A stretch of 64,000 nt of DNA from an uncultured Verrucomicrobiae bacterium (GTDB lineage Bacteria; Chlamydiota; Chlamydiia; Chlamydiales; Rhabdochlamydiaceae). The stretch is from the NCBI GenBank assembly GCA_963731265.1, contig CAVSUE010000001.1, positions 1,280,001-1,344,000 on the forward strand. Direction: 5' to 3'. The translations under genes and the position numbers were made by a program. Positions 1 to 39,880 of this stretch are shown here, piece by piece. Each line of letters starts with the position of its first letter. Positions within the stretch are counted from its first letter, which is position 1. The notes beneath the pieces are model-generated. The model was not told the DNA's origin and ran no database searches. It saw only the letters and a list, made by a program, of their open reading frames with translations.

Positions 1-455
1 ACCTTAAAAAGGGCGAGACTGGCTTTCTGCTGGGCCTGTTGATAAAGAGCTTTAACCTGCAGAAAAACGCCCCCTTCTCTTTGCACTGTCTGGTGGAGAT
101 TTTGGAGACGATCGACCTCACCCTTGATAAGTGCTCTAAGCTGATCGCATCTTTTTTTGACTTCGGGCCAGGGAGGTGCTTGCCGCGTTTTTTTTGGTTT
201 ATAGCTGATTTCCTTGAGAATTTTATCGTAATAGGAAACGGCCTTTTGGCAGCATTCGATCGATTTGTGAAGGAGATCCATGTGCTGCAGTTGTTCTTCC
301 AAGTTGTAAACACCAAATTGCCCGAGAAGCTCCTCATGGGATTTCCATAATGCCTGGATCTTCCCCTCGATTTTATCGGCGTCCTTCTCCTGGAAATAGG
401 AGAAGAGGAAAGTGGGGAGAAGAAAAAACAGGAAAAAGAGATTTGTGCGTTTCAT
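1..455 (-). CDS. Exported hypothetical protein, 5' part only (runs off the left edge)
   Basis: Not in the ORF track. Manual translation from ATG at 455 gives MKRTNLFFLFFLLPTFLFSYFQEKDADKIEGK..., open to position 1, with a signal-peptide-like N-terminus. The GGAGG SD comes from the adjacent repeat. Confidence 0.75.
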   Translation of the reverse strand, partial: MKRTNLFFLFFLLPTFLFSYFQEKDADKIEGKIQALWKSHEELLGQFGVYNLEEQLQHMDLLHKSIECCQKAVSYYDKILKEISYKPKKTRQAPPWPEVKKRCDQLRALIKGEVDRLQNLHQTVQREGGVFLQVKALYQQAQQKASLALFK

Positions 456-713
456 CCGTCCTCCGGCGGAAACCCGGCCCTTAAGGGCGGGTATTTCAAA
501 AACAATATTGGGCCGACTACGAAGCTCGGCCCCAACCTAGAGGATGTCTACAAATTGAGAGTTCGTCGAGTTTTTGGATTATTTTGGCCGATTTTCGATT
601 CCGGAGGTCTAGTATACGCAAGTTGATACAACCCCCGCAAAAAGAACCGAAAAATCGACAGAACCTCAACTTGTAGACATCCTCTTAATCCCAGGCCTTA
701 AGGCCTGGGTTCA
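451..713 (-). mobile_element. Element A copy 1: hairpin-ended non-autonomous element (IS200/IS605-like), containing a nested MITE B
   Basis: On the minus strand: GTGAA-CCCAGGCCTTAAGGCCTGGG...GGGGCCGAGCTTCGTAGTCGGCCC...CCCGCCCTTAAGGGCCGGG-TTTCCGCCGGAGGACGG-ATGAA. Matches the copies at 1272, 25207 and 39789. Confidence 0.85.
540..684. mobile_element. MITE B (GAG...CTC ends, IS5/IS1031-like), nested in element A
   Basis: TIRs GAGGATGTCTACAA / TTGTAGACATCCTC, flanked by CTA and TTA. The uninterrupted element A at 25207 has the empty site GGGATTAAGTTGG. Confidence 0.85.
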
Positions 714-742
714 CAACTGAAAAAAGTATCCGATGGTCGGAT

Positions 743-1132
743 TTACTTTCCAGATTTTTTTTTGAGGAGAGGCCGGATCTGTTTGTTCAAAGACCAAAAT
801 GCAAAATAGAATATCCCGGAAGGCAGGACAAGTAGAAGCAAGACGCATAGAAAGACCATGGGGAAAAATAATGGGTGTGCGCTGAGCTGTCCGAGGGTAC
901 GCTGCAGGAGGGACGAACTTTCCTCGATCGTCGATTGAAACGCCTGCATCGTTTCCGTGCAGCCTCTCACTTCCTCTGTATTAGCTCCTATCGTCGCGAT
1001 GCTTGTATTCATGACACGGGCATTTTCCTGCATCAGCGCATTGCTTTGCTGCATGTTATCGTTCATTTTATCCATGGAACTGCATCCTGAAATAATGGAT
1101 AGTAAAACAATTGCAATGGATTTCTTTATCAT
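743..1132 (-). CDS. Lipoprotein with coiled-coil and C-terminal transmembrane helix
   Basis: MIKKSIAIVLLSIISGC lipobox; N/Q/M-rich helical middle; hydrophobic FFPMVFLCVLLLLVLPSGIFYFAFW followed by a basic tail. Confidence 0.7.
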   Translation of the reverse strand: MIKKSIAIVLLSIISGCSSMDKMNDNMQQSNALMQENARVMNTSIATIGANTEEVRGCTETMQAFQSTIEESSSLLQRTLGQLSAHPLFFPMVFLCVLLLLVLPSGIFYFAFWSLNKQIRPLLKKKSGK

Positions 1133-1271
1133 TATTACTCACAGTCTTTTTTTACATATCAATATTATCCCTTTTTTTATCAAGCCCCAAGAATGCGTTA
1201 ACCCAGGTTAACAATCTTCTTTACAACTTCTCTGCCTAATCGCTATGTTTGTGTTTTTCATTCAGCGAAAG

Positions 1272-36899: not shown

Positions 36900-37466
36900 C
36901 TATGCTACAGGTAATGTGATCTTCATTTGCTTCATGTATTTACCCTTGCGGTCTGCATAAGACACCTCGCACGGTTCGGCGCCTTCGTAGAAAAGCACCT
37001 GCGCCAGCCCTTCATTGCCGTAAATCTTCGCAGGCAAGGGAGTGGTATTAGAAATCTCCAGAGTGACGAACCCTTCCCATTCGGGCTCGAAAGGCGTCAC
37101 ATTGACGATAATGCCGCAGCGGGCATAGGTGGACTTACCGATGCAGAGGGTCAGCACGTTCCGCGGGATGCGGAAATACTCGACGCTGCGGGCAAGGGCA
37201 AAAGAGTTAGGAGGGATGATGCATTCGTCCGCTTCAATTGACACGAACGCATTCTCATTGAAATTCTTCGGGTCGACAAGAGAATTATTCAAGTTGGTAA
37301 AGATCTTAAATTCTCTTGCCACGCGCAAGTCATATCCATAGCTGGACAGACCGTAGCTGATGACTTTCTTTTCATTGACATAGCGCACTTGCGTATCGAC
37401 AAAGGGCTCAATCATTCCTTGATTCTCAGCCTTGTCGCGGATCCATCGGTCGGACTGTAAGGTCAT
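36900..37466 (-). CDS. dcd: dCTP deaminase
   Basis: [42 protein letters not shown]. Start moved to ATG 37466. Confidence 0.96.
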
Positions 37467-37574
37467 AAAATGGTTATTCCTTGAAATGTAAAAAACAGGT
37501 TTTTTTTGAACATATATGTATAGCGCGTGAAATCGATTTCTTGCTAGAGTTTTTAATAAGAGCCTATAAAAATT

Positions 37575-38594
37575 ATGAACGAACCCTTCATTCAGTCTTC
37601 CTGGACTAAAGAGGACGAGCCTTTCGAGGTCCCTCTCCGGCCGCAATCCCTTGAAGATTTCATCGGCCAGAATAGTATTCGGGAAAGGCTGGTAGTCTTT
37701 ATGCAGGCCGCAAAAGAGCGCCGGGAAGCTTTGGGCCATTGCCTTTTACACGGACCGCCAGGCCTTGGCAAAACGACCCTTGCCAATATCATTGCCAAAA
37801 CCATGGGGACTAATCTTGTCGTCACCTCGGGGCCCGTCATTGAGAAACCCGGCGACCTGGCCGGCATCTTGACCAACTTAAAAGAAGGCGATGTGCTTTT
37901 TATTGACGAGATCCACCGGTTGAACCGCGCAGTCGAGGAGTATCTTTATCCGGCCATGGAGGATTTTTCTCTGGACCTTTTGATCGATTCAGGGCCCTCC
38001 GCCCGCAGCGTTCAAGTCAAACTGAACCCGTTTACACTCGTTGGGGCGACCACCCGGGTTGGCCTTCTCAGCGGCCCTATGCGTTCCCGTTTTGCCCTGA
38101 ATTTCAGGCTGGATTATTATTCACCAGAATTTTTAGAAATCATTCTCCTGCGCTCAGGGAAACTTCTCAACGTCGCCCTAAGCAAAGAAGGGGCCTTGGC
38201 CATTGCTGAGCGCGCGAGAGGTACGCCTCGCATTGCGAACAATTTACTGCGCTGGACCCGCGATTTCGTCCAAATTAAAAAACATCCAAAAATCGACCGT
38301 CAAACCGCTCATCTCGCTCTCGATATGCTTGAGATCGACCATCGCGGACTCGATGAAATGGACAAAAAAATCCTTAAACTCATCATCAGCCATTATGACG
38401 GCGGACCAGTAGGGGTCAATACTTTAGCCGTCGCTTTATCCGAAGAAGCCCACACTTTGGAAGAAGTGTACGAACCTTATTTAATCATGCAAGGCTTCTT
38501 GAAACGCACTCCTCGAGGCCGTGAAGCCACTTCCTTGACCTACCAACATTTGGGGCTCAGTCCCCCTGCAAAATTTAACGGAGAAGATTTATGA
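37575..38594 (+). CDS. ruvB: Holliday junction helicase RuvB
   Basis: [51 protein letters not shown]. Confidence 0.97.
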
Positions 38595-39793
38595 TACCCT
38601 TAAAATTCATTTTGGCCGCATCTTTAGTCGCATGCGCCGCCGCTCCCAGCCTTTTGTTATCCGACGGGAAAGAAATCCCTACGGATTTCTCTCAAATGGG
38701 AAAGCCTGCGACGATCAAGGTCCTTATCGAGAAACAAAAAGATAAAATTCTGGTCGAAGCAAAAGGGCGCCACTACATTTACAATCCCCTCAATGAGATC
38801 CTCCTGTCGGAAGAATCCTCATCGACCAAGAACTGGGTCAGGCCAGCCCACAACGGAATGAAATGGGGCGAATTGATCCCCGGCATCTTCCAAATCCGCA
38901 TTGTGCCCGCAGATTCCCTAAGCACCGTTCTCGTCAACGGGATCGAATACAGAGGCTGCGTAGAGATCTACGACCTTAAAGGGCAACTCTACGCCGTTAA
39001 CGAGGTGGATGTCGAGCGCTACCTGAAATCGAGCATGCCAGTGCAATTTTCTTTAGATCTGGACGAAGAGGTTATGGACGCTGTGGCCATCGCTGCCAGG
39101 ACAAATGCTTATTATCTCGCGACCCGAAAATCTGATTTCTGTTGGCATGTCGATGCCATAGATACAGGTTATCAAGGTTATGGGGCTTCTATGCAAAATC
39201 TCAATGTCGAAAGGGCCATTAACAGCACGCGCCACATGGTGATGCTTTATAAAGGGGTTCCCTTCCCAACAACCTGGACAAAAGACAGCGCCGGTAAAAC
39301 AGCGGCTTATACGACAGTCTTTCGCAAAGACGTCACGGCTCCTCGCGGCGTCGAAAGCCCCTTTGCGGCCCGCGAACGTGAGAAGCATGCCTGGACCTTT
39401 ACGATTTCTAAAAGAGAACTTGCCAAAGCTCTCGGTACTACCCAAGCGAACGACTTTGGGGTTTACCAAGATGAAAAATCTGAAAAAGTGTACGGGGCCC
39501 GCATCAGAGATAATGCCGGAGAGCATCAGTTCGATTTTGCTAAGCTCCAAGCGGGATTAGGGGCCGTGCGCCTCAAAAGCAATGATTTCACCATTGCGGC
39601 AAACGGTGATCAAATCATCTTCAAAGGATTTGGGGAAGGAAGCGGCGTTGGTCTTTGTCTGTTCAGCGCATCAGCTATGGCCGACAAAGGGGACAAAGCT
39701 CCAAAAATCCTCGCAGCCTTTTATCCCGAGACAAAATTGGAAAATGTCTCTTCCTTTGATGTACGGACTAAAGTGGTAAAAACCGCGAATTAA
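38591..39793 (+). CDS. SpoIID/LytB domain protein
   Basis: Signal peptide, YRG, VNEVDVERYL, AVAIAARTNA, LKSNDF, G.GEGSGVGLC..SA..MA..G.....IL..FYP. Confidence 0.85.
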   Translation: MIPLKFILAASLVACAAAPSLLLSDGKEIPTDFSQMGKPATIKVLIEKQKDKILVEAKGRHYIYNPLNEILLSEESSSTKNWVRPAHNGMKWGELIPGIFQIRIVPADSLSTVLVNGIEYRGCVEIYDLKGQLYAVNEVDVERYLKSSMPVQFSLDLDEEVMDAVAIAARTNAYYLATRKSDFCWHVDAIDTGYQGYGASMQNLNVERAINSTRHMVMLYKGVPFPTTWTKDSAGKTAAYTTVFRKDVTAPRGVESPFAAREREKHAWTFTISKRELAKALGTTQANDFGVYQDEKSEKVYGARIRDNAGEHQFDFAKLQAGLGAVRLKSNDFTIAANGDQIIFKGFGEGSGVGLCLFSASAMADKGDKAPKILAAFYPETKLENVSSFDVRTKVVKTAN

Positions 39794-39880
39794 GCTGGGG
39801 CCGAGCTTCCTACTCGTCCCAACATTGTTTTTGAAAATACCCGGCCCTTAGGGGCCGGGTTTCCGCCGGAGGAGGGATGA
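39789..39880 (+). mobile_element. Element A copy 4 (left hairpin missing)
   Basis: ATTAAGCTGGGGCCGAGC...CCCGGCCCTTAGGGGCCGGGTTTCCGCCGGAGGAGGG-ATGA. Confidence 0.85.

Follow-up and report, generated by a model that had tools for sequence, protein, structure and literature searches.

A 64,000-nt stretch of the genome assembly GCA_963731265.1 (contig CAVSUE010000001.1, positions 1,280,001 to 1,344,000; 'the window' throughout), from an uncultured bacterium placed in the Rhabdochlamydiaceae, contains several copies of a short repeat, here termed element A, whose right end coincides in every copy with the start codon of a long open reading frame (ORF). Element A is a real, well-defined new repeat family. 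The reading that we favour, with moderate confidence, is that this 117-nt unit is a non-autonomous, orientation-specific mobile repeat of a chlamydia-like lineage, which keeps the two flanking ORFs intact and substitutes a start driven by a Shine-Dalgarno (SD) sequence for translational coupling. Four copies lie in the window (copy 1, 451-713 on the minus strand; copy 2, 1272-1540; copy 3, 25207-25323; copy 4, 39789-39880), all of them where an earlier, sequence-only reading of this DNA had placed them, and four further copies were found in other genomes.

Copies, ends and flanking genes of element A

The right-end 21-mer TTTCCGCCGGAGGACGGATGA has four matches with at most one mismatch in the window, as compared to none in 100 dinucleotide shuffles, and the 25-nt core CAACATTGTTTTTGAAAATACCCGG, located before the third hairpin, is exact in copies 2-4 and carries two changes in copy 1. 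A 23-mer covering the left hairpin matches only copies 1 and 2, on both strands each since it is a palindrome; in copy 3, the same hairpin contains a 1-nt deletion plus a substitution and is recognised by alignment, and copy 4 is without it. The alignment defines the basic unit as the 117 nt seen in copy 3. Copies 1 and 2, with ~265 nt each, resolve into this 117-nt unit and a separate, nested element with terminal inverted repeats (TIRs), referred to as element B.

Genome contigs were scanned with an internal core pattern that includes neither the SD nor the ATG, meaning that the new copies were found without selection for their right end. The scan, which did not return the window's own genome, yielded 45 loci; according to blastn, four of these are full copies (116-117 nt, 90-93% identical to copy 3) and 41 are chance seed matches. 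Three full copies (L010, L014 and L032) reside in the metagenome-assembled genome (MAG) 'Verrucomicrobia bacterium BOG_genome_mining.30' and one (L022) in an 'uncultured Verrucomicrobiae' MAG. These Verrucomicrobia labels may be loose; genes of the window look chlamydial, with a CesT chaperone, a DUF818 'Chlamydia CHLPS' protein, and SpoIID homologues labelled Rhabdochlamydiaceae or Chlamydiota. A profile built from the eight copies (nhmmer) revealed no further or partial copy in the window plus the four loci, which together comprise 118.7 kb, and a 'distant' blastn search of the unit against 72,556 plasmids gave no match.

What happens at the right end? All eight copies end in ..GGA-TGA-, the next base being A in seven and C in copy 4, and in all eight, across three genomes, the ATG at this end opens a co-oriented long ORF, of 151 aa (open-ended) to 565 aa. 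The long ORFs that the sequence-only reading had seen behind the window copies are indeed there (151 aa, running off the window, 242, 324 and 565 aa); copy 4 ends in ATGAC, not ATGAA. As judged from Pfam and the ORF list, the genes downstream of the eight copies are functionally unrelated: an exported protein, MenG/UbiE, a PP2C phosphatase and an AsnB-like protein in the window; an ornithine cyclodeaminase, a membrane protein after Asp23, a TolC-like OEP protein heading an efflux operon, and a GT1 glycosyltransferase in the MAGs. The products of three copies carry N-termini resembling signal peptides or transmembrane segments. By comparison with orthologues, the right-end ATGs are native gene starts, because the same N-termini recur there: MKFF.. 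opens the PP2C protein of the window as well as its two closest orthologues (P0002 and P0003), and the MTIAGA N-terminus of the AsnB-like protein is shared by 7/9 of its closest orthologues and by 7 of the 17 matches listed. Besides, the Pfam match of the ornithine cyclodeaminase starts with residue 3 at profile position 3, and that of UbiE with residue 12 at profile position 8. The coincidence of the right end with start codons, first proposed for the window, thus holds for eight of eight copies before unrelated genes in three genomes, at native starts.

The left flank reads N-TGAA in the seven intact copies, with N being G in five, A in one and T in one. The 'RTGAA' formerly given for this end is actually N plus TGAA, with the TGA of copy 3 being the stop codon of an upstream serpin ORF, and the motif shared by the junctions is better described as NTGA, often GTGAA, than as an ATGAA target. 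In half of the copies (copy 3, L014, L010 and L032), the left TGA terminates an upstream ORF on the same strand (153-522 codons; a serpin, an Asp23 protein, an aminotransferase and a polysaccharide flippase). Despite the presence of stop codons in all three frames of the element, the upstream ORF ends at this first TGA each time (4/4), which argues that the left TGA is ancestral. Their sequences mark these four sites as likely former stop/start overlaps of the NTGA type, with ATGA at one site and GTGA at the other three. A single gene split by the insertion was considered and rejected: the frames of the upstream stop and the downstream start differ by one base, like in a true NTGA overlap.

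Copy 4 would represent a fifth such case. SpoIID orthologues end ..KTSNR or ..KTTNQ and the SpoIID-like protein preceding copy 4 ends ..KTAN, one residue shorter, consistent with insertion of element A at an NTGA overlap and a later deletion of ~29 nt, by which the final codon would have been lost along with the left TGA and hairpin 1. Counting this inferred case, at least five of the eight copies are operon-internal. As for the remainder, a 129-aa ORF upstream of copy 1 (1132..743) stops 32 nt before the element, the upstream stop at L022 lies 21 nt before it, and copy 2 is found in divergent intergenic DNA. TGA(A) forms a direct repeat at both junctions, in that NTGA(A) is present on the left of all seven intact copies and TGA on the right of all eight. 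Under the insertion model, the bare serpin/PP2C overlap is predicted to have read ..GTATGAAATTC... There is no synteny between the window and the four MAG loci.

The GAGGA core in front of the ATG is invariant (8/8; GGAGGA in six copies, AGAGGA and CGAGGA in one each), and the distance from the end of GGAGG (AGAGG in copy 2) to the start codon is 4 nt, in agreement with what had been read from the window copies. SD motifs are scarce among the window's 40 other predicted genes: GGAGG precedes two, a 5-mer core three and any 4-mer core nine. Neither do the left flanks, that is, the would-be old upstream regions, possess a comparable SD motif. With no such motif in the left flanks and GGAGG at just 2/40 other genes, the previous notion that the element rebuilds a displaced ribosome-binding site (RBS) gives way to another: element A appears to bring a new, unusually strong SD to sites that were coupled or SD-independent, and this SD would be used in translation. 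In at least four copies, what gave way to it would be the coupling of an NTGA stop/start overlap and not an RBS.

Between its two ends, the element is a succession of hairpins. The N-TGAA is followed by hairpin 1 (CCCAGGCC-TTAA-GGCCTGGG), ATTAAG, hairpin 2 (GGGGCCGAG-CTTCGTA-CTCGGCCCC) with a T-rich tract behind it and a terminator-like score, an A/T-rich spacer, hairpin 3 (CCCGGCCC-TTAA-GGGCCGGG), and the tail TTTCCGCC-(G/A/C)GAGGA-(C/G)GG-ATGA. The leftmost 27 nt contain a stop codon for every frame (TGA, a TAA in the loop and the TAA of ATTAAG). Read backwards, the ATG frame is open for 42 nt only and contains no start codon, so no small ORF passes through the element. Hairpin 1 adjoins TGAA directly, and 23 nt separate hairpin 3 from the right junction. 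There is no complementarity between the extreme termini: the left end CCCAGGCC.. is unrelated to the right end ..GGAGGACGGA, i.e., the outermost ends are no TIRs. When copy 3 is folded on its own, hairpin 1 pairs with hairpin 3 (z = -2.7), which is a TIR-like complementarity and not proof of an RNA. RNAalifold of the eight copies returns three local hairpins, with one compensated pair among 23. Rfam at gathering score has no match in element A (a small signal recognition particle (SRP) RNA is its sole match in the window), and at E values up to 1, copy 3 shows one match of 19 bits as opposed to a gathering score of 88. A promoter scan, whose coverage is confined to sigma-70-like sites, found none in 25100-25400; near copies 1 and 2, promoter-like sites occur only in element B or upstream DNA and are not more numerous than in shuffles. 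Terminator-like sites of the type formed by hairpin 2 and its T-rich tail are likewise no commoner than in shuffles.

Mobility of element A is suggested by several features of the sequence. Near-identical copies occupy non-homologous sites in three genomes, the only other similarity between the window and the loci being a third repeat (element C, see below), and the boundaries are sharp and accompanied by the TGA(A) direct repeat. Copy number differs as well: the core pattern, which is exact in all eight known copies, matches the L022 MAG once and BOG_genome_mining.30 three times, as compared to four copies in 64 kb here. Moreover, the L022 MAG encodes orthologues of SpoIID (P0141, 74%) and of the AsnB-like protein (P0122, 80%) on a contig of 829,232 bp, as long as that of L022 and apparently the same one, which has no core match besides L022. 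This is indirect evidence that the SpoIID/AsnB-like junction of that MAG represents an empty site. Copies of element A also show 90-96% DNA identity between genomes in which SpoIID and the AsnB-like protein are 74% and 80% identical as proteins. Copies 1 and 2 both carry element B (149-153 nt) directly after ATTAAG, inserted at an identical position and identically oriented, and the two B parts are 94% identical over 125 aligned positions, but 83-90% or less identical to stand-alone B. Because the internal junction is identical and the B parts are each other's closest relatives, an A::B composite has probably been propagated by the ends of A.

How might such insertions be tolerated? According to our model, element A would insert in a single orientation at NTGA motifs (mostly GTGAA) whose NTG is a native start codon. 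In at least half of the cases, their TGA also terminates the preceding gene, giving the classic 4-nt stop/start overlap. TGA(A) would come to lie at both junctions, like a target duplication of 3-4 bp. The left TGA(A) would keep the upstream stop, with the element closing the remaining two frames by further stops within 27 nt, and the element-borne A together with the right TGA(A) would recreate an in-frame ATG, so that both neighbouring ORFs would stay intact. The last 20 nt of the element would supply GGAGGA 4 nt upstream of this ATG. As a result, a coupled or SD-less start would be turned into an independent, SD-driven start behind three GC-rich hairpins, which could be transposase-binding sites and/or RNA stabilisers or partial terminators. 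Target choice and strong selection would jointly confine the element to start codons.

A number of observations weigh against this model. No transposase is detected by Pfam in the 44 window and 43 locus ORFs, nor is there a longer element with the ends of element A in the window and the four loci. The SD-bearing 23-nt tail lies outside the hairpin 1/hairpin 3 pairing, and the termini are not inverted repeats. Copy 4 has TGAC instead of TGAA at its right junction, and G precedes the left TGA in 5/7 copies, although GTG starts are rare (2/40). Two NTGA overlaps of the window, TTGAA at 6698 and ATGAT at 38591, are unoccupied. In predicted ensembles, the SD is partly paired, with a probability of being unpaired of 0.07-0.56. 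Covariation is near zero, the copies being too similar to test structure, and leaves an RNA role of the hairpins unsupported. Gene starts are longest-ORF calls and therefore approximate, with TTG probably over-called; the exact core pattern would miss copies with a mutated core, and the sample amounts to eight copies only. Lastly, the high identity of the element between genomes could also reflect functional constraint instead of recent movement.

Target choice, survival and the moving enzyme

Is the restriction to start codons due to survival alone? In this scenario, insertion would happen at any TGA(A), and the stop codons, the SD and the A of the ATG would render only insertions at starts or overlaps harmless. 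This possibility had already been raised in the sequence-only reading, and it is compatible with our favoured explanation, which includes selection. In a genome that is ~90% coding, most TGA sites would be lethal targets, and the terminator-like hairpins could make other intergenic insertions polar. Site counts, however, speak against survival as the sole cause. The window contains 2,236 TGA sites on both strands, of which 16 coincide with predicted starts and 171 fall in non-coding DNA not belonging to element A (for TGAA: 824, 6 and 79, respectively), yet none of the eight copies sits at an intergenic site other than a start. Starts constitute 16 of the 187 TGA sites that are either non-coding or at starts; if only insertions at these survive, four of four copies at starts has p ~5e-5, and eight of eight p ~3e-9 when the window proportions are applied to the other genomes. 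Simple survival in non-coding DNA falls far short of this excess, which leaves a target longer than TGA or strong selection against other intergenic positions. The regularities of the flanks, with G before TGA in 5/7 and A after TGA in 7/8 copies, suggest a longer target, G-TGA-A-A, and survivorship by itself seems to us rather unlikely.

Which enzyme could move element A? The sequence-only reading had derived it from IS200/IS605 elements. Formulated accordingly, element A would be a palindrome-associated mini-element (IS200/IS605- or REP/RAYT-like) mobilised as single-stranded DNA by a Y1 HUH transposase, inserting 3' of a (G)TGA(A) target resembling a target-adjacent motif (TAM) and ending in its own TGA(A). 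It does share with these families the perfect or near-perfect subterminal hairpins at both ends, asymmetric termini free of inverted repeats at their extremes, and a strict orientation relative to a 4-5-nt motif in the left flank, and it tolerates internal cargo, namely, the nested element B. IsrB elements of this family use NTGA/TTGA TAMs, as stated in the relevant passage of PMC9581776, so that what the sequence-only reading gave for IsrB holds for NTGA/TTGA TAMs. Nonetheless, Pfam detects no TnpA, RAYT, TnpB or IscB in the window or the four loci, the 118.7 kb contain no autonomous or longer element with the same ends, and there is no Rfam match to the HEARO or omega-RNA families (the sub-threshold hit scores 19 bits versus 88). 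IS608 has a guide/cleavage-site spacing beside its hairpin, for which the abutment of hairpin 1 on TGAA leaves no room in element A. In contrast to the IS200/IS605 and REP/RAYT families, element A also has the motif at both junctions, where TGA would fit a target duplication equally well, is oriented by the gene and ends in an SD+ATG tail. Copies 1 and 2, 560 bp apart, have opposite orientations within one stretch of negative GC skew, meaning that orientation follows the gene rather than the replichore, which is not a lagging-strand bias. That said, the window has a negative GC skew throughout that never switches, and a comparison of orientation with replication is uninformative. An origin of this kind for element A thus strikes us as unlikely.

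Although yidC lies next to dnaA (14124-17363), no skew switch accompanies them, and the GC skew of the window reflects gene orientation instead of an origin. Two further candidates for element A were rejected, namely, an integron attC site (lacking an integrase and, by eye, a core-site match) and an IS91-type GAAC target (GAAC is found at the left side only).

It is improbable that element A is primarily a cis-regulatory leader, that is, a 5' UTR or intercistronic RNA module shared for common control of translation or stability in the manner of Neisseria REP2/CREN, its mobility being ancient or incidental: while the conservation of all 117 nt between genomes with more divergent proteins (90-96% versus 74-80%), the small invariant predicted stem over part of the SD and the A of the ATG, the terminator-like hairpin 2 with its T-rich tail, and the RBS+ATG-bearing repeats REP2 and Borrelia IR-A (as described in the sections on these repeats in PMC3184786) could all be accommodated by a leader, the functionally unrelated downstream genes, a unit devoid of promoter-like sites, the sharply defined ends, where TGA(A) is directly repeated and the left repeat contains the upstream stop, the nested MITE (miniature inverted-repeat transposable element) in an apparently propagated composite, the varying copy number between relatives, and the lack of an Rfam match and of covariation all speak for a mobile repeat.

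Relation to known repeats and implications

Element A is not unprecedented, and the novelty assumed for it at first was overstated; MIRUs (PMC12548453) and REP2/IR-A (PMC3184786), as portrayed in the parts of these sources that deal with them, each show half of the idea. MIRUs are described as inserting at start codons (Supply et al. 1997, as cited in a passage of PMC12548453), and Delihas 2011 reports in its section on MIRUs tetranucleotide direct repeats and a comparison of empty with filled sites (PMC3184786). From the same kind of summary, their ends overlap the stop and start codons of the neighbours, and tolerance is attributed to preserved downstream translation. Both MIRUs and element A are small, non-autonomous repeats located between co-oriented ORFs of operons, at the start codon; for element A, this applies to 8/8 native starts, with the left TGA serving as upstream stop in 4/8 and, by inference, in a fifth. 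Differences concern the interior. A MIRU, as there outlined, has a small ORF coupled (-4 nt) to the downstream gene, whereas element A has an SD and, with its early three-frame stops and an ATG frame open for just 42 nt, no ORF of this type. MIRUs are further given as 40-100 bp long, often in tandem and actinobacterial; no sequence relation is expected.

The other half is provided by Neisseria REP2 (CREN) and Borrelia IR-A/IR-B, 120-150-bp repeats without TIRs and with internal stem-loops that supply RBS and ATG. For REP2 and IR-A, the pertinent passages of PMC3184786 mention two stem-loops, together with a promoter, RBS and ATG located immediately 5' of ORFs. Element A resembles them in its GAGGA (8/8, 4 nt 5' of the ATG) and, under the duplication model, in an element-borne A of the ATG. 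It differs in that the promoter ascribed to those repeats has no counterpart among the sigma-70-like sites scanned for, and in that at least 5/8 copies are operon-internal at former overlaps, flanked by a TGA(A) direct repeat, and belong to another phylum. Classical MITEs (Correia/CREE, ERIC, RUP) are also short, non-autonomous and hairpin-forming and may alter the expression of neighbours. Element B is of this TIR type; in element A, by contrast, the outermost termini are not inverted repeats and the copies are confined to start codons. By analogy, element A may therefore be described as combining the site choice of MIRUs with the SD+ATG of REP2, and as dispensing with the ORF of the former and the promoter of the latter. 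A 2024 review of prokaryotic MITEs (PMC10969869) has no mention of 'start codon', 'ribosome' or 'Shine'; in the open-access literature searched, no description of a chlamydial element of this kind was found, and a look-up of terms in the accessible text of a Rhabdochlamydiaceae genomics paper (PMC9723776) pointed to none.

If the proposed mechanism is true, element A represents a compact natural cassette, consisting of three-frame stops, three hairpins, an SD and the A of an ATG, that can enter the commonest bacterial overlap, NTGA, with neither gene being broken. It would offer a system for addressing the question of whether start-codon confinement stems from target choice or from selection, which has been open since the MIRUs, and it would allow the effect of replacing translational coupling by an SD on operon stoichiometry to be tested in an SD-poor phylum. 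For annotation of chlamydia-like genomes, a warning follows: an 'intergenic' spacer of 110-270 nt preceding an MK.. start may represent an insertion. Synthetic operons might also make use of the 117-nt unit, a candidate for a portable intercistronic spacer.

More speculatively, and as an idea to which we give only a small chance, element A or its recombinase might recognise the start/overlap context itself (NTGA plus neighbouring bases), making it a natural 'operon splitter' that uncouples gene pairs and installs a strong SD. If true, this would retune protein stoichiometry in a lineage in which SDs are rare. Element A would then coexist with B, a TIR-type MITE nesting in A, and with C, which inserts in-frame in coding regions, each of these two small families being built to be harmless in a compact genome.

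Feature coordinates and further observations

Coordinates and strands of element A, the nested copies of element B and the flanking ORFs within the window
Feature	Position	Strand	Remarks
Element A copy 3, intact 117-nt unit	25208..25323	+	from sequence, alignment and folding
Copy 3, TGAA	25208-25211	+	
Copy 3, hairpin 1	25212-25230	+	
Copy 3, ATTAAG	25231-25236	+	
Copy 3, hairpin 2	25240-25262	+	
Copy 3, A/T-rich spacer		+	
Copy 3, hairpin 3	25282-25301	+	
Copy 3, TTTCCGCC		+	
Copy 3, GGAGGA	25310-25315	+	
Copy 3, ATG	25319	+	PP2C start
Element A copy 1, right part	451..534	-	hairpin 2, spacer, hairpin 3, GGAGGA; ATG 455-453
Element A copy 1, left part	684..713	-	TGAA, hairpin 1, ATTAAG
Element A copy 2, left part	1272..1301	+	TGAA, hairpin 1, ATTAAG
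Element A copy 2, right part	1455..1540	+	AGAGGA; ATG 1536
Element A copy 4	39789..39880	+	left-truncated (no TGAA, no hairpin 1); GGAGGA 39868-39873; ATG 39877
Element B nested in copy 1	535..683	-	both TIRs (AGGATGTCTACAA...TTGTAGACATCCT)
Element B nested in copy 2	1302..1454	+	right TIR lost
ORF with signal-peptide-like N-terminus (MKRTNLFFLFFLLPTFLFS)	3..455	-	starts at copy 1 ATG; runs off window edge
ubiE/menG methyltransferase ORF	1536..2264	+	starts at copy 2 ATG; Pfam match from residue 12, profile position 8
PP2C phosphatase ORF	25319..26293	+	starts at copy 3 right-end ATG; N-terminus MKFF..
AsnB-like ORF	39877..41574	+	starts (ATGACA) at copy 4 right-end ATG; N-terminus MTIAGA
Serpin ORF	23726..25210	+	TGA stop is left TGA of copy 3
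SpoIID-like ORF	38591..39793	+	stop is TAA of ATTAAG (39791-39793) inside copy 4

Element B is a TIR-type MITE of ~150 nt, whose central palindrome contains TTGCGG-18 nt-TATACT, promoter-like by eye. TAA/TAG flanking its nested copies suggests a TA(A) duplication. Stand-alone relatives are located near 21839-21998 and 36590-36725, one of them ~45 nt 5' of the gene at 22040; of the two GGAGG motifs not supplied by element A, one belongs to this gene. The A::B composite of copy 2 lies directly before ubiE/menG, the first gene of a complete-looking menaquinone cluster (1536-9833) that further comprises genes for a menF-like chorismate-binding protein, a menD-like thiamine pyrophosphate enzyme and a menH-like hydrolase, as well as menB, menA, menC and menE.

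Element C is found in coding regions at 25779-25934, 29144-29392 and 23940-24020 of the window, at 2538-2701 of L022 and at 2469-2685 of L010. In the PP2C gene, it amounts to an in-frame insert of 52 aa in the catalytic domain, missing from all 11 aligned orthologues; a peptide of the same frame (LQ..QN..NGNV..DL....HVY) occurs in an ORF of 1018 aa and, in L022, forms the C-terminal tail of TrpA, and in the serpin, element C is read in another frame. In this, it is similar to Rickettsia palindromic elements, for which insertion into genes in-frame is noted in the corresponding section of PMC10969869. The window further contains a tandem duplication of ~2.9 kb (27761-30817 and 30945-33716; 86-92% DNA identity, repeat families D1-D3 and D10), which gives rise to two paralogous ORFs of 1018 and 923 aa with no Pfam match.

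Among the genes next to element A copies, that of the AsnB-like protein is followed, just 3' of it, by the bacterial small SRP RNA (Rfam RF00169, 51 bits) at 41622-41720. A Cys2 nucleophile is expected in class-II glutamine amidotransferases; the AsnB-like protein and its orthologues start MTIAGA.., without this residue, and may be non-glutaminase relatives. At L010, ~2 kb from the element A copy, an ORF for an AbiEii-type nucleotidyltransferase toxin and an upstream ORF of 215 aa (2964-4486) probably constitute a type IV toxin-antitoxin pair.

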